From Candidatus Latescibacterota bacterium (GTDB lineage: Bacteria; Latescibacterota; UBA2968; GCA-2709665): DNA of 64,000 nucleotides. This document shows positions 13,993 through 46,156 of this stretch, piece by piece (the stretch's first letter is position 1; each line of letters opens with the position of its first letter). The notes beneath the pieces were generated by a model that ran no database searches, was not told the origin of the DNA, and saw nothing but the letters and a program-made list of their open reading frames with translations. The position numbers and the translations under genes are program-made. The stretch covers positions 4,800,001 to 4,864,000 of the forward strand of contig OZ252100.1 in the NCBI GenBank assembly GCA_965248435.1, in the 5' to 3' direction.

Positions 13993-14069
13993 TAGGAGGG
14001 CAAAGTGTTGAGGTTATACCAAATAAATTACCGCCCTTCGAATGCGATCGAAAAGCGGTGTCGCCCTTT

Positions 14070-14150
14070 TCGACTCCCTGCGCCGGCATGATCCGGATCA
14101 GGTTCAAAGGGTATGTTCTCAGCTCAAGAGATGAGCACCCCCGTTTGCTG
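14070..14150 (-). ncRNA. TPP riboswitch upstream of thiO operon
   Basis: GGGGTGC..CTGAGA..ATACCC TTTGAACCTGATCCGGATCATGCCGGCGCAGGGA; terminator-like hairpin at about 14025-14060. Confidence 0.95.
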
Positions 14151-14204
14151 CCATAAAGATAACGGTTCTACAGGGGGGTAGTCAAGTTTTGCATAGATCT
14201 GTCT

Positions 14205-19454: not shown

Positions 19455-19483
19455 GCCATTATGTGCATTACAGAACAATTTCG

Positions 19484-19563
<80 letters not shown>

Positions 19564-19637
19564 AACTTCATATCTGACAAAGAGCGGTGTTACAAGGAAA
19601 AACTAAACAGAATCGCTCACTTCGTCAAGGGCCGGGA

Positions 19638-38910: not shown

Positions 38911-39078
38911 CATGTGACCGAATGCCCGGTTTACGAGGGCAAGATGAAGATCATCGCCGCACTCACCGAGCCCCTGGCCATTCGGACCTACCTCGACGGG
39001 GTCGGTCTGGCCTCGTGTCCGCCACCCATCGCACCTCCACGCCCTCTCCCTCAGACTGAATTCGAATACGCGGGCTAA
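38911..39078 (+). pseudogene. C-terminal remnant of an IS91/ISCR-like transposase
   Basis: ECPVYEGKMKIIAALTEPLAIRTYLDGVGLASCPPPIAPPR resembles the CPxCGGxMRIIA..IL..LGL..PP..PAR tail. Confidence 0.7.
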
Positions 39079-39172: not shown

Positions 39173-39304
39173 GGCTAACGTCCCCGCGGGCTGCGAACTG
39201 CCAAGCAACCGCCGTGACAGAGGCAAGGTTGCCGGAGGCCGGAGGGAGCCCTTCGGCAGGCTCAGGGTAAACTCCGCGACTGGAGCGCAAAGCCCGTGTT
39301 TTAG
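39173..39304 (-). other. attC-like site 3 (carries a REP-like insert)
   Basis: Minus strand CTAAAAC-a-CGGGCTttGCG...CGCAGCCCG-cggggac-GTTAGCC, starting at the methyltransferase stop codon. Confidence 0.65.
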
Positions 39305-40068
39305 CTTTGTGAGTTCTTCAGATATGTGACGGGACCTCCGAAGAGAAATATCCCTTTCGGAGTCTTGAAAAAAGGTTCCAGGTCGGAAAGCAGTAAAGCT
39401 CTAACATCATCGATCCTCTCGTTGCCCTGTTCCACAGCTGCAATACAGTTAGTCTGGGTCAATATATAATCCACGAGCGCATCTCGCGAGAAGTTGACTT
39501 CGTTCGTGTAGTGTTCTTTACCCAGAAAATCGAAACCTTCGCGGTTTGCATCTTCTTCTTCAAAAGGTTGACGATTCCGTGGAGGGGTCGGGTACCGCTT
39601 CAGATGCACTTCGTACACCCATTCTTCAAAGTCGGGGTTCTCTGCCATTTTCCCACTGAAACTGTTATTGTAGATCACGAGATACCCGTGGCTTTTCAAG
39701 AGCCTACGTGCCTCTGAAAGAAACCTGGAACGGTCAAGCCAATGGAAAGCAAGCGCAACAGTGATCATATCGAACGAACTATCAGGTAGCGGTATTTCCT
39801 CGGCAGGAGCAACGTAATAGGTAATGCGATCATCCTTTGTGGCAAGGTCTATCATCTCCGAGGATGAATCTATTCCTACGATATTTTTGACGATTTCCTT
39901 GAGAGCCACACAAGATCGTCCTGTCCCGCATGCCACGTCCAGGGCTACTTCCAAAGGATCTGTTAGATTCAGGTAACTCTTGATCATCCCGATAACCAGA
40001 GGATGAAAATATGGCCGAGCCGCCGCATATCTTTTGGCGGCAGTCATATGATCGAAATGACCTGCCAT
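39301..40068 (-). CDS. Class I SAM-dependent methyltransferase (cassette-like)
   Basis: ALDVACGTG, FDMITVALAFHW; more AT-rich than core genes. Confidence 0.88.
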   Translation of the reverse strand: MAGHFDHMTAAKRYAAARPYFHPLVIGMIKSYLNLTDPLEVALDVACGTGRSCVALKEIVKNIVGIDSSSEMIDLATKDDRITYYVAPAEEIPLPDSSFDMITVALAFHWLDRSRFLSEARRLLKSHGYLVIYNNSFSGKMAENPDFEEWVYEVHLKRYPTPPRNRQPFEEEDANREGFDFLGKEHYTNEVNFSRDALVDYILTQTNCIAAVEQGNERIDDVRALLLSDLEPFFKTPKGIFLFGGPVTYLKNSQS

Positions 40069-40086
40069 TGGTTATTCTCTTTCCCC

Positions 40087-40121
40087 TTCCGCAGCCGGTC
40101 GTGCTATGCGGCTGTGTTGTG
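40087..40121 (-). other. Degenerate/truncated attC-like site
   Basis: ACACAAC (complements the GTTGTG start of this cassette) then a CAGCCG..CGGCTG hairpin; no downstream GTT. Confidence 0.4.
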
Positions 40122-40161
40122 TTTTTGCTATCCACGGAACAATTGAGGCGGCCAATTCGTC

Positions 40162-40452
40162 TCAATTGAGAAGTGAGCTAACGTCAGCGATAGCTTCCGG
40201 CAATTTTCGAATCTGACTTTCCAGATCCCATCTGCGTATCAGGGAACCCTTGACTCTTCCAGGTTTTTCCACGTAGAAAGACAGCTTGTCAGCATAATAG
40301 ACTGCCCAGACTAGCCCGAATGTTTCCCTCTCAGCCTGGGAAAGTTGTCGCTCAGAAAGATACCCCTCGAAGAAAGTCTTCATCTCTTCTTTGTGAAGTG
40401 GTCTTCCGTTCCCCTTCGTATCCGTCGTACGTATACGAAGTGATGTCATCAC
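40162..40452 (-). pseudogene. Probable gene fragment (resembles a phosphotransferase C-terminus)
   Basis: FFEGYLSERQLSQAERE motif; no convincing start. Confidence 0.35.
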
Positions 40453-40531
40453 GAGACTTTCCTGTGGCCGTCGGTCCTTAAGGCGAACAATGGGCAGAAA
40501 TCCTATATCATCAGCATTGAGCCTTGAACGA

Positions 40532-40969
40532 TCAATCCTTGATGATTCCCTTATGAATCATTGGATTCCCGTCACTCCAAAGGACGCGCTGAACAATGGA
40601 CGCGATGCGCCAAGAGCCAGATATCTTCTTCACACCAAGAATATACAGGCAGTGGGTATTCAGCACTTCACCAGATGAGTCTCTTCGGTGTATAGCCATA
40701 GAGATTCGGGCGGTCCCAACTTCGCCATCAAGCTGTATTTCGTAGTTGCCTGCAAGATGATGAGTCTTTAGCTCCTGCAGTGCCTCACACCGGAGTTTAA
40801 CAAACTGCTCCGCAGTTAGGACTTCGGGGGGGGTTCCACGAAGATCCGAGTAGTCAGTATATATGGACTCGGATAGACAGGACTTCAGGTCATCCCAAGC
40901 CTTGATATCAAAGCAATTTGCGAATCGACTGATTAATCGATACACATGACTCTCATCTGATGAACTCAC
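40532..40969 (-). CDS. NTF2/SnoaL-like protein (cassette-like)
   Basis: D.KAWDDL, THHL, WRI motifs; follows attC-like site 2. Confidence 0.8.
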   Translation of the reverse strand: MSSSDESHVYRLISRFANCFDIKAWDDLKSCLSESIYTDYSDLRGTPPEVLTAEQFVKLRCEALQELKTHHLAGNYEIQLDGEVGTARISMAIHRRDSSGEVLNTHCLYILGVKKISGSWRIASIVQRVLWSDGNPMIHKGIIKD

Positions 40970-41029
40970 TCAAAGAACTCCTATCGAGACTGCGCCGCTT
41001 CTGTTTTGGGGGGGTTAGGCTGGCATTGC

Positions 41030-41115
41030 GCACAACGTTCTCGCCGTGCGCGAACTTGCCGCAGGCAAGTTAGGCGAAGGCCGGATGGGCTGAGCCGCGC
41101 ACGGTCGTGTTATAC
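41030..41115 (-). other. attC-like site 2
   Basis: Minus strand GTATAAC-acga-CCGTGCGCG...CGCGCACGG-cgagaac-GTTGTGC. Confidence 0.75.
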
Positions 41116-41149
41116 GCTTGCTGGTTCTGGTATCAATGCGGTGTCTGTA

Positions 41150-41857
41150 TCATTTTTCTTCAAGTATTTCAGCCTGAATTGTTTCCTCTTGAGCAGATCG
41201 CTTACCACGCGTGACTCTGTAAGCCTTCGCATTGAGTCGGGATGAGACGACTTTCTTGACCCTCTCTCCTTCGAAGTGAGCGGCTGCGCCGTCATCAAGT
41301 GCAATGCCTGGCAAAATCTTACCTTTCCAGACGAGTTGCTGATAGTAAGGGCGACGGTCGACCTCACTGTCGTAATGTGGGCAACTGCTCCCAGGAAGAA
41401 ATCCGAGACAGTCTAAAGGCAAAAGGGGTCCTTTAACAGAGTCCGTCACTCCCTGTTCGAACCAGCAAATCGCGCCCGCACTGATCCCCGCAAGGATGAC
41501 TCCACACTCCCAAGCTTCCCGAAGCATCTCATCCAATCCCCAGTCCCGCCAGACGGCAAGCATACTTCGAGTGTTCCCGCCTCCAACGTAGATAACGTCC
41601 TTTGCCAGCAGATAGGACTTCAGATCTGCCTCAGTCCTTCTGAAGAAGGTGAGATGTGAAGGCTGACAATCGAGTTGCGCGAAGGCAGTGTAGAATCTGG
41701 CAACATAGGTGTCAGCGTCCCCACTGGCGGTTGGGATGAAGCACACAGAGGGCTTCGTGGTGGAAACCTGGTTTAGAATGTACAAATCCAAAGCAGGTGT
41801 CTCCTCCATGGAAAAGCCCCCTCCGCCCAGTGCAATTATATGTTTCTGCTTACTCAT
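41150..41857 (-). CDS. pepE: Peptidase E (S51) family (cassette)
   Basis: FIPTASGD, YVGGGNT, GISAGA, CPHY. Confidence 0.9.
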   Translation of the reverse strand: MSKQKHIIALGGGGFSMEETPALDLYILNQVSTTKPSVCFIPTASGDADTYVARFYTAFAQLDCQPSHLTFFRRTEADLKSYLLAKDVIYVGGGNTRSMLAVWRDWGLDEMLREAWECGVILAGISAGAICWFEQGVTDSVKGPLLPLDCLGFLPGSSCPHYDSEVDRRPYYQQLVWKGKILPGIALDDGAAAHFEGERVKKVVSSRLNAKAYRVTRGKRSAQEETIQAEILEEK

Positions 41858-41926
41858 CGTTGTTTACTGACCCTCCAATAGGCCACCGACTATTTCATAG
41901 GAACGATTACCCCAGAACCAGCTTGC

Positions 41927-42001
41927 GTATAACGATTAAGCGTGTATCCGGAGTCGGAGAAGCGTGGACGGGAGCGGGATTCCGGATACACGGTGTTGAA
42001 C
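41927..42001 (-). other. attC-like site 1, overlapping the element's left end
   Basis: Minus strand GTTCAAC-ac-CGTGTATCCGGA...TCCGGATACACG-cttaatc-GTTATAC. Confidence 0.75.
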
Positions 42002-42206
42002 GAAGCCGCTTCACCTGCCTATGGGGATTGGATGAGTGATTCTTGTGTAAGGACCGCTGGGCTGGCCCAGTCATCGGACCGTATTTGAAGCTGTTTGGAG
42101 GGGCCGATGTCGCAGGATCCCATAGTCGCTCTACCAAGCTCAAAGAGTGGACAGACTACTGCCGTGTTGGGTGGTTGGGCTTGCGGGCAAGGGATGGTGT
42201 AGGAGC

Positions 42207-43391
42207 TCAAGCTACGGCAACATGTGCCGGAGGCGCTCGCAGAGGCGCGAGGGTTCCGACTGTGAGCATAGGGCCTCCGCACTGCGCACAGACCTGAAGA
42301 TCGATGCCTGTTACCCGGAACAGAAGGTCCTGCCAGGTCGCCTTTGTGGCTGCGGAAGCCGTCGTGCATACAGTGCCCAGGAGCCTACGGCATCGTGCGA
42401 GCTTTTTCCGGCGACCCCGATTGCTGAGCAGTCCGTAGTGCCGGATCTTCACGAAGCCATCCGGCAGGATGTGAAGCAGGAACCGCCGGATGAACTCGTA
42501 GGCATCGACGGTCATCAGCTTCCGTCGGTTGCCGGCCTGGCGGTCCCGGTAGTGGAATGAGACCCGGTCGCCCTCACAGGCGACCAGCCGGTGGTTGGAG
42601 ATGGCGATCCGGTGCGTGTATCGTCCCAGATAGGCCACGATGCGTTCTGGACCCGCAAAAGTCGGCTTGACGTAAACGGTCCATTCCCTCTGGTAAAGAC
42701 CCCGAAGCAGATCGAAGAACGCATCTTCCAGTGGAGCACTCAATCCCGGGAACGCCAGAAGGCCTTCCTGGTGCGCGTCCTTCAGGAACGCAAGGAACTT
42801 CCCCCGGAACAGTCGGGACAGAACTTTTACGGGTAGAAAGAAGCCCCGTCGCGCCGCCTTCCATTCCTGACCGTCGTGGGTCAGCCCACCTCCAGTTACG
42901 ATACAGTGCAGATGCGGGTGGTCGATGAGTGTCTGAGACCACGTATGAAGCACGGCGGTAAAGCCGATCTGCGCTCCAAGATACTTCCGTTCCCGCGCCA
43001 GCTCCAGAAGACTCTGCGATGCGGCTTTAAACACCAGGTTGTAGATCAGCTTCTGGTTCCGCAGAGCAAGCGGCCGCAGGGGCTCGGGCAACGTGAAGAC
43101 GACGTGGAAGTATGGGATCGGAAGGAGATCCTCTTTACGAGCGTCGATCCATCGTTCGGTCGTCAGGAACTGGCACTTCGTACAGTGCCGGTTGCGGCAG
43201 GAGTTGTAGGCGATCCGCTTCGTTCCGCACTGCCCGCACACTTCCACGTGTCCGCCCAGCGCAGCTGTTCGGCAGATCTGGATGGCTCGCATGGCCCGCT
43301 TCTGCCGAAGCGGCATGTGATCACCGTAGTGTGCTTGATACCCATCTCCGTGGACTCGGAAGATGTCGGCGACTTCGAGAGGCTGTGACAT
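42207..43391 (-). CDS. IS91-family (Y2/HUH) transposase
   Basis: Zn-binding CGQCG..YNSCRNRHCTKC; HPHLH (HUH); YLGRY (YxxxY); FIRRFLLHILP..KIRHYG. Confidence 0.93.
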   Translation of the reverse strand: MSQPLEVADIFRVHGDGYQAHYGDHMPLRQKRAMRAIQICRTAALGGHVEVCGQCGTKRIAYNSCRNRHCTKCQFLTTERWIDARKEDLLPIPYFHVVFTLPEPLRPLALRNQKLIYNLVFKAASQSLLELARERKYLGAQIGFTAVLHTWSQTLIDHPHLHCIVTGGGLTHDGQEWKAARRGFFLPVKVLSRLFRGKFLAFLKDAHQEGLLAFPGLSAPLEDAFFDLLRGLYQREWTVYVKPTFAGPERIVAYLGRYTHRIAISNHRLVACEGDRVSFHYRDRQAGNRRKLMTVDAYEFIRRFLLHILPDGFVKIRHYGLLSNRGRRKKLARCRRLLGTVCTTASAATKATWQDLLFRVTGIDLQVCAQCGGPMLTVGTLAPLRAPPAHVAVA

Positions 43392-43403
43392 GGCCAACCT
43401 CCG

Positions 43404-44255
43404 CTACAAGGTCGGCTTGTCTTCATCTCCCAAAAGGTCCAGGGGGCTTCTGATACGCGTGAGATCGCGAGTGGTGACGTGGAGGTAGACGGTGGTGGTT
43501 CGCAGGCTCGTGTGACCCAACAGTTGTTGGACGAAACGGACGTCCACTCCGTTGTCCAGAAGATGTGTGGCGAAGCTGTGACGCAGAGAATGGACACTCG
43601 CACGCTTTTGTATCTCGGCGCGTCGGCAGGCCTGCTCGAAGACTTTCTGGACACTGCGGGCGTGGAGCGGTGCATCCGGTCTTTCGCCAGGGAACAGCCA
43701 ATCGCGAGGCTGGTAGCTGCGCCAGTAGACGCGGAGTGCCTTTAACGCCTCCTGGGCCAGAAGCGTCTCTCGCTCTTTTTGGCCTTTGCCCCGCACACGG
43801 ATCAGCATCCGGTCACTGTCGATATCGGAAAGCTTTAGCCCGATGGCCTCACTCAGTCTGAGCCCGCCAGAGTAAATGACCATCAGCAGCGTACGGTGTT
43901 TCAGGTTGTTGGTCCTGTCGATCAGCCGCTGCACTTCCTCTGTGGAGAGTACCACCGGGAGCTTCTTTGCCTTCTTCGCACGAGGGATGCCCCACTCGAC
44001 CCAGTCACGCTTCAACGTCGTTTGGAACAGAAACTTCAGTCCGCTGTATACCTGGTTGACATAGCTTTGGGACAGCTTCCGCTCAGTGATCAGATAGTGC
44101 AGATAGGCGCGGATCTCTTCTTCGCTGAGCCGGTCGGGCGGTGTCTTGCAGTAACGACACAGCCCGGCCACTCCGCTCACGTACGCCTTCTGCGTATCCG
44201 GATCTAAACCTTTCAACTGCATGTCCCGGATCATTCGCTTCCGATGCTTGGTCAT
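43404..44255 (-). CDS. Tyrosine recombinase with N-terminal SAM-like domain (not IntI)
   Basis: GLRLSE, KGQKER, HSLRHSFATH, LGH, TTTVY; lacks the IntI-specific insertion before WLFP. Confidence 0.93.
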   Translation of the reverse strand: MTKHRKRMIRDMQLKGLDPDTQKAYVSGVAGLCRYCKTPPDRLSEEEIRAYLHYLITERKLSQSYVNQVYSGLKFLFQTTLKRDWVEWGIPRAKKAKKLPVVLSTEEVQRLIDRTNNLKHRTLLMVIYSGGLRLSEAIGLKLSDIDSDRMLIRVRGKGQKERETLLAQEALKALRVYWRSYQPRDWLFPGERPDAPLHARSVQKVFEQACRRAEIQKRASVHSLRHSFATHLLDNGVDVRFVQQLLGHTSLRTTTVYLHVTTRDLTRIRSPLDLLGDEDKPTL

Positions 44256-44560
44256 GGCTCTCTCCTTCTGCTGATGGTGGACGTTGTTAGCAGAAGGAGG
44301 ATGCGAAGCACAGAGCCATTTGCAAAGTGGCTCCGGACTTGCACGGTATCATATCCTGGTTGTCAAAGAGCAAAGGCCTTGCAGCAGGCCACCGCGAAGC
44401 GGTTTAGTTCAACTTCTGCATTCGCGCACCATGTGCGCAGATTCCACCTGTAGGGCAGATAGAATGCCCTGCCTGAATCCTGCTAATAATATAGAGAATG
44501 CGTATTGGTTCGTGAACCCAATTCATAATGCGTATGTGTTCTTCCAGATCCAAGAAGCAT

Positions 44561-44624: not shown

Positions 44625-45605
44625 TTACTCGGTCGCGGCCCCTCCGTCGAAGCGTCTCTTGAAGTTCGCCTTCAACTCCTCAAGCAGGGCCTTCTGTTCC
44701 TCCGTGAGAAGGCCGCTGATCATTTCCTGGAACTCGTTGCGCAGCGCCTGGACCTGCTCACGCACGGTTCCACGCTCGGCTCCGGCGGCGCGCGCCTCTT
44801 CGATGAGCGCCTTCACCGCAGCCTGCCGATTTTCTTTCAACGCAGTCATCTGCTCCTGCTGATCGGCCGTGAGCCCGAGCTTTTCGGAGATGTCGCCCGC
44901 ACCCCGGGCCCGCTTACCTCTTTTTCCACGTGCGCGGTCATGACGGGCTGATTTCATTTCTTCGAACAGGGCCTTCTGCTCGTCATTCAAGATGCCCAGG
45001 ATCTCTTCGTGAAGCTGATCACCAAGGGCCTGCTTCTGCTCCCTGAAGCTCTCCCGATCGGAGCCTGCTGCCTTCGCCTCTTCGATCAGCGCCTTTATGG
45101 CAGCACCGTGCTCTTCTCGAATGGCCGTGATTGCCTCCTGCTGCTCGCCCGTGAGCCCAAGCCTTTCAGCGAAGTCGCCCGAGCCGCCGGCCCGTTTCCC
45201 TCGCCTCCCGTGTGGGCGGGACTGGCGAGCGGCTTTCAGCTCTTCGAACAGCGCCTTCTGCTCGTCGTTCAGGACAGAAGCGATCCGTTCGTGGAACTGT
45301 TCGCTTAGCGCCCGCTTCTGCTCCCGGAACGTCGCCCGATCGGAACCCGAAGCCTTCGCCTCTTCGATCAGGGCCTTGATGGCGGCCCTCTGCTCCTCCC
45401 GTATGGCGGTGATCGCTTCCTCCTGGTCCTGGGTCAAGCCCAGCTTCTCGGCCAGGCTGCCGCCCGCGGATGTGAAGGCTGCATCCGATTCGCCCGCCAG
45501 CTTTTGAGCCTGTGTGGCCAGGCTGGACGTTGCCGTCTCATTACCGCACCCATATACCCCGATGCCGATCATCAGCAGGGATAGGAAAATCGCTTTGGCT
45601 TTCAT
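44625..45605 (-). CDS. Lipoprotein with three tandem Spy/CpxP-like (LTxxQ) repeats
   Basis: Lipobox-like VYGC; three KLGLTxxQ...L(N/T)xEQKAL repeats. Confidence 0.8.
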   Translation of the reverse strand: MKAKAIFLSLLMIGIGVYGCGNETATSSLATQAQKLAGESDAAFTSAGGSLAEKLGLTQDQEEAITAIREEQRAAIKALIEEAKASGSDRATFREQKRALSEQFHERIASVLNDEQKALFEELKAARQSRPHGRRGKRAGGSGDFAERLGLTGEQQEAITAIREEHGAAIKALIEEAKAAGSDRESFREQKQALGDQLHEEILGILNDEQKALFEEMKSARHDRARGKRGKRARGAGDISEKLGLTADQQEQMTALKENRQAAVKALIEEARAAGAERGTVREQVQALRNEFQEMISGLLTEEQKALLEELKANFKRRFDGGAATE

Positions 45606-45628
45606 GTCGTTCCTCCTTCGCAAAAAGT

Positions 45629-46156
45629 TTACATCTTATCCAAAGGTTCGGTTTCAGCCGCACCGAGATCGGTGTCACCCGGCTGGAACCATCCTCTGTG
45701 TCTTTGTTGTGGCCCCCCACGATGATCGGGTCCGGGACCCCTCATCCGGTGACCTCTCCGATTCATATGCCTGAGCTTTTCCAGCTGCTCCTTCGAAAGG
45801 ATCTTCTTCAGGCTCAGCCTGTGGTCGACCCGGCTTTCGAGCATCTTCGAGCGCGCGCCGTTAACCTGGGCCACCCTTTTCTTCACTTCGGCCCGGTTGG
45901 GATCGGCCGGTTTCATAGACGCGCGCAGGTCGATGCGGGCGACCTGAAGATCCGCTCTGAGGCGAGCCATCTCTTTGGCCCGGGAAAGATGTATATCCTC
46001 CAACTTCCCACGCTGTGCCTCTGTCAGGTCCAGGGCTTCCCAGGCGGGTCCCCCGTGGCCGGAACGCCCACGTTTCTTTCCGTGATCCGCCTCTGCTGCA
46101 GCCGAGATCAGGACCACCGATGCAATTATGGCTGTGATTAAATTCTTGGACATCAT
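45629..46156 (-). CDS. Spy/CpxP/ZraP-like periplasmic protein
   Basis: Signal peptide; LDLTEAQ ... ILSKEQ. Confidence 0.8.
   Translation of the reverse strand: MMSKNLITAIIASVVLISAAAEADHGKKRGRSGHGGPAWEALDLTEAQRGKLEDIHLSRAKEMARLRADLQVARIDLRASMKPADPNRAEVKKRVAQVNGARSKMLESRVDHRLSLKKILSKEQLEKLRHMNRRGHRMRGPGPDHRGGPQQRHRGWFQPGDTDLGAAETEPLDKM

Follow-up and report, generated by a model that had tools for sequence, protein, structure and literature searches.

The DNA stretch analyzed here (the window; 64,000 nt of contig OZ252100.1 from a Candidatus Latescibacterota bacterium) carries what is probably a short, integron-like array of promoterless gene cassettes without a canonical integron integrase. 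Taking into account the rest of this genome (G000) and other genomes of the class, we consider it likely that the array belongs to an integron-like system independent of the canonical integrase, IntI. The components of such a system would be a compact family of tyrosine recombinases, an attI-like site that we term X, and a family of attC-like sites described by a covariance model, R1. Clusters of attC sites are abundant in genomes lacking an integron integrase, a finding that was called surprising (Cury 2016, PMC4889954). Here, a whole bacterial class bears such arrays: R1 sites are present in 35 out of 61 genomes, and IntI in only 6.

An initial annotation, made from the letters of the sequence, had noted three hairpin sites (sites 1 to 3; Table 1) sharing the arrangement AAC, short spacer, stem, stem, 7-nt spacer and GTT. 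The pattern is beyond chance. When combined with a stem of at least 7 bp, it occurs 44 times in the genome, versus 5, 2 and 4 times per shuffled 2 Mb; when spacer lengths are left unconstrained, 4/7 is the most frequent combination (27 sites). Model R1 was built from an alignment of 20 short sites of the same genome, none of them from the window. In this alignment, 95.4% of the cells are paired versus 80.2% in shuffles, none of 500 shuffles reaching as high a value, and 14 of the 25 pairs change on both sides. As a control, partners were slid by 1 to 3 columns, upon which pairing falls to 24–44%. The consensus includes an R pair of TAAC with GTTA, a 9-bp covarying stem with 7 positions changed on both sides, and a three-way junction, also covarying, that carries two small hairpins. 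No variation is seen in AAC and GTT across the alignment.

Within the window, R1 identifies site 2 with 81.4 bits (E 3.9e-21). Site 1, as part of a different element described below, reaches only 10.7 bits (E 3.2), and site 3 is not found. Over the whole genome, 77 sites are obtained at E <= 0.1, grouped in about ten clusters. No match at E <= 1 appears in 80 recombinase loci from other phyla; hence this exact family is restricted to the lineage, and hairpins in those phyla call for looser scans. Both strands were also folded as DNA, a check that had been proposed together with the pattern. Sites 1 (z -3.0 and -2.9) and 2 (z -2.0 and -3.0) fold better than shuffles, and in both the bottom (window plus) strand folds more stably. 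Site 3 folds no better than shuffles (z +0.27 and -0.22) and can thus be considered decayed; its 3′ half is intact and indels are located in its 5′ arm. Some family sites elsewhere in the genome (C1 2073698-2073785, 5549921-5550014 and others) are chimeric: their arms come from differing stem types and the stem cannot form. These may be scars of deletions between adjacent sites.

The spacers of the three sites were read again on the minus strand. Lengths and letters of the 3′ spacers are as first described (cttaatc, cgagaac and cggggac, all of 7 nt and of the form C...C), and so are the 5′ spacers of 2, 4 and 1 nt (ac, acga and a). The perfect 12-bp stem without an extrahelical base, which had been pointed out for site 1, is indeed present there, but does not extend to the family as a rule: a one-base bulge occurs on the 5′ arm of 15 of the 20 seed sites. 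In a gapped arm alignment of 63 sites, 26 carry a bulge in the 5′ arm and 2 in the 3′ arm. The alignment further shows that the CG of the 3′ 7-mer pairs with the CG of the 5′ ACGN (columns 9/94 in 17 and columns 10/93 in 19 of the 20 sequences, and in some of them maintained through double changes), so that the unpaired parts are 1 nt at the 5′ side versus 5 nt at the 3′ side. The family is best written as AAC, A, CG, optional bulged base, 9-bp stem ... stem, CG, AGAAC, GTT. This 1/5 form is present in 30 of the 63 sites, and in 7 more where the script anchored on an upstream AAC.

Spacer letters were counted in the 66 family sites in which both AAC and GTT could be located. All 66 have an A following AAC, 64 have a C preceding GTT, 57 contain the C.....C 7-mer, 54 start with ACGN at the 5′ side, and 30 contain CGAGAAC. 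Both the C preceding GTT and the bulge on the R″-L″ arm agree with the attC sites described by Bouvier 2009 (PMC2727003). The strongly one-sided loop and the conserved spacer sequence depart from the attC description in that paper, which also reports that the spacer alone can impose strand choice once the extrahelical bases are deleted.

Complementarity between consecutive sites shows how the arrays are divided into cassettes. For each of 59 pairs of consecutive sites, we compared the 6 nt that follow GTT with the 6 nt that precede the next AAC. Complementarity is perfect in 32 of the pairs, and on average 4.69 positions match, versus 3.19 when partners are shuffled (at most 3.59 over 1000 shuffles). 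Pairs with a poor match are mostly separated by over 1.5 kb, where a site probably went undetected; within one site, complementarity is much lower than between consecutive ones. The integron rule therefore applies, each cassette spanning from TT to the next G. The same G|TT boundary, and an own inverse core complementary to the cassette start, define integron cassettes. In the window, the start of cassette 1 after GTT is complementary in 6 out of 6 positions to the 6 nt preceding the AAC of site 2. Thirty-seven cassettes measure 615-3591 nt, and the longest frame lies on the array strand in 33 of them. One cassette is found in two arrays with 97.5% identity over its full 754/753 nt and with exact boundaries. 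Its copies lie at C1 4653774-4654528 and 1443350-1442597; one is the first cassette after a unit of the type described below, the other is internal. When cassette DNA was searched in 60 relatives, only distant matches (about 70% identity) and attC-to-attC matches were obtained, which gives no evidence of recent transfer.

Site 1 is not the site of a cassette; it is the hairpin end of a mobile unit that contains the tyrosine recombinase gene of the window followed by an IS91-family transposase gene. The left part of site 1 is identical in six genomic copies, each of them directly downstream of a copy of this gene pair. Upon alignment of the six loci, the unit was delimited as a segment of about 2.48 kb, 98-100% identical, running from (G)TTGAAC to the G of site 1, with imperfect terminal inverted repeats of about 18 nt. 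Its first bases are the exact complement of the R″ of site 1 (GTTCAAC), and the unit is hence organized as a cassette, own site included. The copies diverge beyond G|TT, and the sequence that follows matches the R″ of the next site in 6 out of 6 positions in the five out of five cases in which a next site was detected. At a locus near 2.07 Mb, cassettes flank the unit on both sides. Contigs from public sequencing runs break at 41930 and 44414, and the depth of the unit is about 4.8 times that of its flanks. Neither a circle junction nor an unoccupied-site joint was found among these contigs, which cannot show rare forms.

In related units, the geometry of the end is the same. The end of the unit in the relative G004 reads GTTCAAC, 3 nt, 12-bp stem, ctttacc and GTT, and spacers are 1/7 and 1/6 in two other loci (L021 and L023). 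Among 80 related loci, which come from many phyla, 29 have an IS91 transposase following the recombinase. Some IS91-family members listed in ISfinder carry an upstream tyrosine recombinase gene. The transposase of the window is of the HUH/Y2 type, as is proper of IS91. The IS91 target, GTTC/CTTG abutting oriIS, is not present at the unit, the flanks of the hairpin end reading GTTA... in all six copies. The two proteins of the G004 unit are 56% and 61% identical to those of the window, and that unit lies directly after a canonical IntI gene (L114 3615-6954). G004 contains this arrangement of IntI plus unit, with its family recombinase, two times (L114 and L118), and in one of them IntI is truncated. 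Behind the unit, the first cassette resembles a toxin–antitoxin pair of two genes.

Upstream of every unit copy there is a semi-conserved stretch of about 115 nt, X, ending in ...GCAGAA just before the GTT of the unit (fold z -3.75). All six copies of the unit are inserted at X sites and point the same way, despite about 77 R1 sites being available in the genome. Searching with a profile of these X stretches reveals further, unoccupied copies in the genome. One of them (4954338-4954224) lies immediately behind the remains of a paralogous recombinase (a C-terminal fragment of 82-92 aa), and precedes GTT and a cassette whose terminal site bears the matching R″; others head arrays at 5004274 and 5351219. 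The resident platform recombinase thus appears to survive in this genome as a fragment only, the intact recombinase genes being those carried by the six unit copies. In relatives, X-like sequence starts directly after the stop codon of the recombinase in five loci and ends in ...TA GTT, variable sequence following. X thus behaves like an attI site: its left part is fixed, crossover is at G|TT, and what lies to the right comes from the first cassette. X was also considered as an attC site of the R1 family, and this was rejected as R1 does not match it. X-like sequence is further present behind the gene of a 362-aa phage-type integrase and behind a truncated paralogue of this gene (C1 4624078-4625492 and 4650377-4651296); X is therefore not limited to recombinases of the window's family.

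The unit can also be read in another way, which we hold to be possible, if rather doubtful. Site 1 would then be the subterminal palindrome of an IS91 end, and the unit an attC-homing insertion sequence that moves by rolling circle; the recombinase would have another role and the attC likeness would be target mimicry. As to the homing step itself, the HUH transposase would cut after ...AAC in folded attI/attC bottom strands, a step to which we give the same limited credit. IS91 ends do have subterminal palindromes, the IS91 target tetranucleotide is similar to the cut site at terIS, and the active intermediates are single-stranded circles of the bottom strand (PMC13181058). In the genome studied here, the target of the unit is always NTAAC and its far end ...CAAC, and the stem sequence is conserved across distant units, as expected for the end of an element. 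Against this, six out of six insertions occurred at X despite the presence of about 77 R1 sites with the same TAAC, which integration of an attC-like end into an attI-like site accounts for better than a tetranucleotide rule. The start of the unit is, moreover, complementary to its own R″, as in every cassette, and the classical GTTC/CTTG target beside oriIS is absent.

With respect to the recombinase acting on the R1 sites, no protein of the genome (97% complete, 2 contigs) matches the IntI model TIGR02249 above the cut-off. The recombinase of the window, which stays below this cut-off, matches the model in two stretches (7-176 and 237-314); the IntI-specific insertion is located within the skipped positions 177-236. 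When aligned with four IntI proteins from relatives, both unit-borne and array-borne recombinases lack about 40 residues of this insertion. A C-terminal SP(L)D motif is common to IntI, unit-borne and array-borne recombinases, and absent from the two Xer proteins of the genome. At the level of the class, 33 of the 35 R1-bearing genomes lack IntI, and IntI and R1 sites coexist only in G004 and G060. R1 finds nothing significant near canonical IntI in 14 loci (157 kb).

Recombinases of the window's family, searched for in relatives at E <= 1e-50, are present in 13 genomes, 10 of them with R1 sites. Linkage was analyzed in twelve stretches that contain these genes. In seven of the loci (G003, G018, G044, G060, G038, G047 and contig 1 of G057), a recombinase 44-53% identical to that of the window, without transposase, lies directly upstream of an R1 array and co-oriented with it. 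The gene is divergent from the array in one locus (contig 2 of G057), inverted inside the array in G001, and alone in one further locus. G020 has 30 sites and lacks an intact recombinase; pseudogene pieces and X are found at the head of one of its arrays. The pieces are of the array type (L137 7348-7655 and 16751-17297), the second one being followed by an X-like site and then by family sites; decayed platforms seem to be common. In the phylogenetic tree, unit-borne recombinases form one clade (support 97), sister to the array-borne recombinases of the class (support 89). Array-linked forms from Bacteroidota come next, and IntI and Xer lie apart. Similar arrangements are seen at a greater distance. 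In an Ignavibacteriota locus (L030 9935-17313), a 316-aa insertion-less recombinase is followed by at least 10 same-strand AAC...GTT hairpins with spacers 2/5 or 1/4, and in L035, L026, L075, L046 and L037 one to three such sites follow longer recombinases with an N-terminal extension.

It had been proposed in the initial annotation that the sites form a distinct class matched to a recombinase without the IntI insertion. The distinct family, the lack of IntI in the genome and the linked insertion-less recombinases sustain this proposal in part; the recombinase of the window itself, being part of an IS91-family unit, is not the platform integrase. Likewise, the site type is not confined to settings free of IntI, as the sister unit of G004 sits in a canonical IntI integron.

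The arrays might alternatively be ordinary attC-site clusters that have no integron integrase (CALIN), their cassettes having been moved by a canonical IntI since lost or acting from other cells, and their geometry reflecting lineage drift. A CALIN is defined as two or more attC sites without a neighboring IntI, and with sites called by R1 the arrays agree with this definition. An attC site is an imperfect palindrome with R″ and R′ (AAC and GTT), L boxes, an unpaired central spacer and extrahelical bases; the sites described here have the R and L pairing and the AAC/GTT, with 1/5 spacers that are not near-symmetric and an optional bulge. Canonical IntI does exist in the class, in the few genomes mentioned above, and many R1 genomes have no linked recombinase whatsoever. 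The summed spacers (4+7 = 11 nt) equal those of the 5/6 canonical sites of L114 and L119. The C before GTT corresponds to the conserved G after AAC in most attC bottom strands (Bouvier 2009, PMC2727003), and CALINs are common in genomes free of IntI (Cury 2016, PMC4889954). We nevertheless judge this explanation unlikely: IntI is missing from nearly all R1-site genomes, no significant R1 site lies near the canonical IntI genes searched, and insertion-less recombinases together with X head arrays in at least seven loci. That the hairpins are transcription terminators or generic intergenic palindromes, as their position just after stop codons and their G+C-rich stems might suggest, is extremely improbable, since they lack a T run, their AAC and GTT are invariant, they are complementary to the beginning of their own cassette, one entire cassette occurs twice with boundaries that are exact, and the three-way junction covaries.

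Several observations weigh against an integron-like system that operates independently of IntI. The main gap concerns array heads: those of the large arrays in G002 (42 sites), G021, G010 and G058 showed no recombinase within the 20-kb stretches analyzed. In addition, only 10 of the 35 genomes with R1 sites contain a family recombinase at E <= 1e-50. The unit of G004 lies directly behind canonical IntI, and the cassette after it has a canonical attC as its end, so that IntI could also handle such ends. The unit junctions have GTT on both sides, which fits an IS91-type cut after ...AAC as well as an exchange at G|TT. The contrast with canonical attC sites near IntI (in G004 and G054), which follow the same cassette rule and have near-symmetric spacers of 1/2, 2/2, 4/4 and 5/6 with one to three 5′-arm bulges, supports a structurally distinct family and comes from a small sample of only 5 sites. 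The recombinase tree, finally, comes from a quick search that leaves its deep order open.

With these points considered, we still favor the IntI-independent system, the operation of which could be as follows. Cassettes end in a folded R1 site and would be exchanged at G|TT, as in integrons. Arrays begin at X, which in loci of relatives comes immediately behind the stop codon of a tyrosine recombinase gene of the same orientation. From this adjacency, we infer that the compact recombinases recombine folded single-strand sites, performing an integron-type exchange on R1 sites. The one-sided 1/5 bulge, instead of extrahelical bases read by the IntI insertion, may set strand choice and bending, and the long bulge could in this manner make up for the absent insertion. 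The IS91 transposase may supply a single-stranded circle that the recombinase inserts at X; in IS91, the active intermediate is a bottom-strand single-stranded circle (PMC13181058). Much more tentatively, a second integron lineage independent of IntI can be envisaged, in which insertion-less recombinases use the one-sided bulge and units of recombinase plus IS91 transposase are self-propelled "integrase cassettes": the transposase would make the single-stranded circle, the hairpin would fold, and the recombinase would insert the unit at attI-like sites.

Table 1. Position of the hairpin sites, the cassette genes, the mobile unit and adjacent features in the window.
Feature	Coordinates	Strand	Description
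Site 1 (A)	41931..42001	-	GTTCAAC, ac, perfect 12-bp stem, cttaatc, GTT; attC-like hairpin end of the IS91 plus recombinase unit
Site 2 (B)	41030..41115	-	TAAC, acga, 9-bp stem, cgagaac, GTT; typical member of the cassette-site family (model R1)
Site 3 (C)	39173..39305	-	AAC, a, imperfect stem needing a 2-nt bulge, cggggac, GTT; decayed long-form member
Possible site stump (weak)	40075..40130	-	R″-like ...CACAAC, then 6-bp stem, no GTT; fold z -1.47
Cassette 1 gene, Peptidase_S51 family	41150..41857	-	Cassette 1 runs from 41932 down to 41036
Cassette gene, SnoaL_4 family	40532..40969	-	
Cassette gene, S-adenosylmethionine (SAM)-dependent methyltransferase	39301..40068	-	
Cassette-shaped unit, 2.48 kb	41933..44412	-	TTGAAC ... 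site 1 ... G; six genomic copies
IS91-family HUH/Y2 transposase, 396 aa	42207..43397	-	NF033538, 449.6 bits (cut-off 125)
Tyrosine recombinase, 283 aa	43404..44255	-	TIGR02249, 191 bits (cut-off 265); IntI/Xer-like
Site X, attI-like head-of-array site	44411..44525	-	Left part semi-conserved; end ...GCAGAA G|TT
Short open frame	38914..39078	+	Adjoins the R′ side of site 3, at the far end of the array

The transposase listed in Table 1 also matches Y2_Tnp and Zn_Tnp_IS91 in a family-domain search. The ...CACAAC of the possible stump matches 6 nt of the start of its cassette. A full site between 40075 and 40300 was considered and rejected, only stumps being present. The short open frame beyond site 3 presumably resembles the C-terminal remnant of a different IS91-type transposase; if so, the array may have IS91-type remains on both sides. 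We also searched for an empty site corresponding to the window locus: synteny with G001, of the same genus, ends at window position 45684, and no match was found leftward. A minus-strand gene (44625-45623) encodes a 332-aa LTXXQ-family protein with three internal repeats, at which the public-run contigs show a 282-nt go-back joint. A scan of the window with Rfam at gathering scores gave nothing at the hairpin sites; it returned only two thiamine pyrophosphate (TPP) riboswitches, at 14058-14152 and 19475-19565 (both on the minus strand; 69.8 and 68.9 bits), located upstream of minus-strand genes.

The definition of the site structure, of an attI-like site and of a candidate recombinase family makes the system amenable to bench tests with one 283-aa protein and three short DNA sites. 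The recombinase gene, so far unexplained, of many IS91-family elements likewise gains a concrete candidate role. If the interpretation is correct, an integron lineage independent of IntI would account for many cassette arrays without integrase, and insertion of a unit could re-arm orphan arrays.

In the literature considered, which did not cover supplements and subscription journals, we found no description of the R1 site family, of X, or of the preference of the unit for attI-like sites. Integron-like arrays with a recombinase are already in print. In the rAID-1 arrays of gut Bacteroidales, a XerD-like recombinase stands at the 5′ end, the genes run co-directionally and the repeats between them are likened to integrons; the arrays are defined by at least 44% identity to the B. 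fragilis recombinase plus at least two co-directional low-GC genes (10.1101/471110). The arrays studied here resemble them in the 5′ tyrosine recombinase, the co-directional downstream genes and the repetitive intergenic sequences. They differ in belonging to another phylum, the nearest named homologues of ilvB bearing the label Latescibacteria, and in that their cassettes contain genes for enzymes and no known immunity genes; in addition, the site structure, the exact G|TT boundaries and the attI-like site have been worked out here. What is added to the published arrays is the other phylum, X and the preference of the unit for X.

When compared with integrons, including chromosomal integrons with an inverted integrase and CALIN arrays, the system shares the folded AAC...GTT sites, the exchange at G|TT and the cassette start complementary to its own R″. 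Common features are as well the mostly single, co-oriented and promoterless genes, a head site whose right half comes from the first cassette, the C before GTT and the bulge on the R″-L″ arm. In contrast to integrons, the recombinase lacks the IntI-specific insertion, the internal loop is of 1 nt versus 5 nt in place of the near-symmetric spacers of canonical sites, at most one base is bulged and without fixed identity, the spacer sequence itself is conserved, and X folds on its own. Elements that target attC sites are known, namely IS1111-attC insertion sequences and group IIC-attC introns. With the IS91 family, the unit has in common the HUH/Y2 transposase, distinct ends with a subterminal palindrome, the lack of target duplication and the multiple identical copies. 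It differs from that family in that the target is not GTTC/CTTG, insertion takes place at the crossover point of an attI-like site, and the whole element is cassette-shaped, with its own attC-like site.

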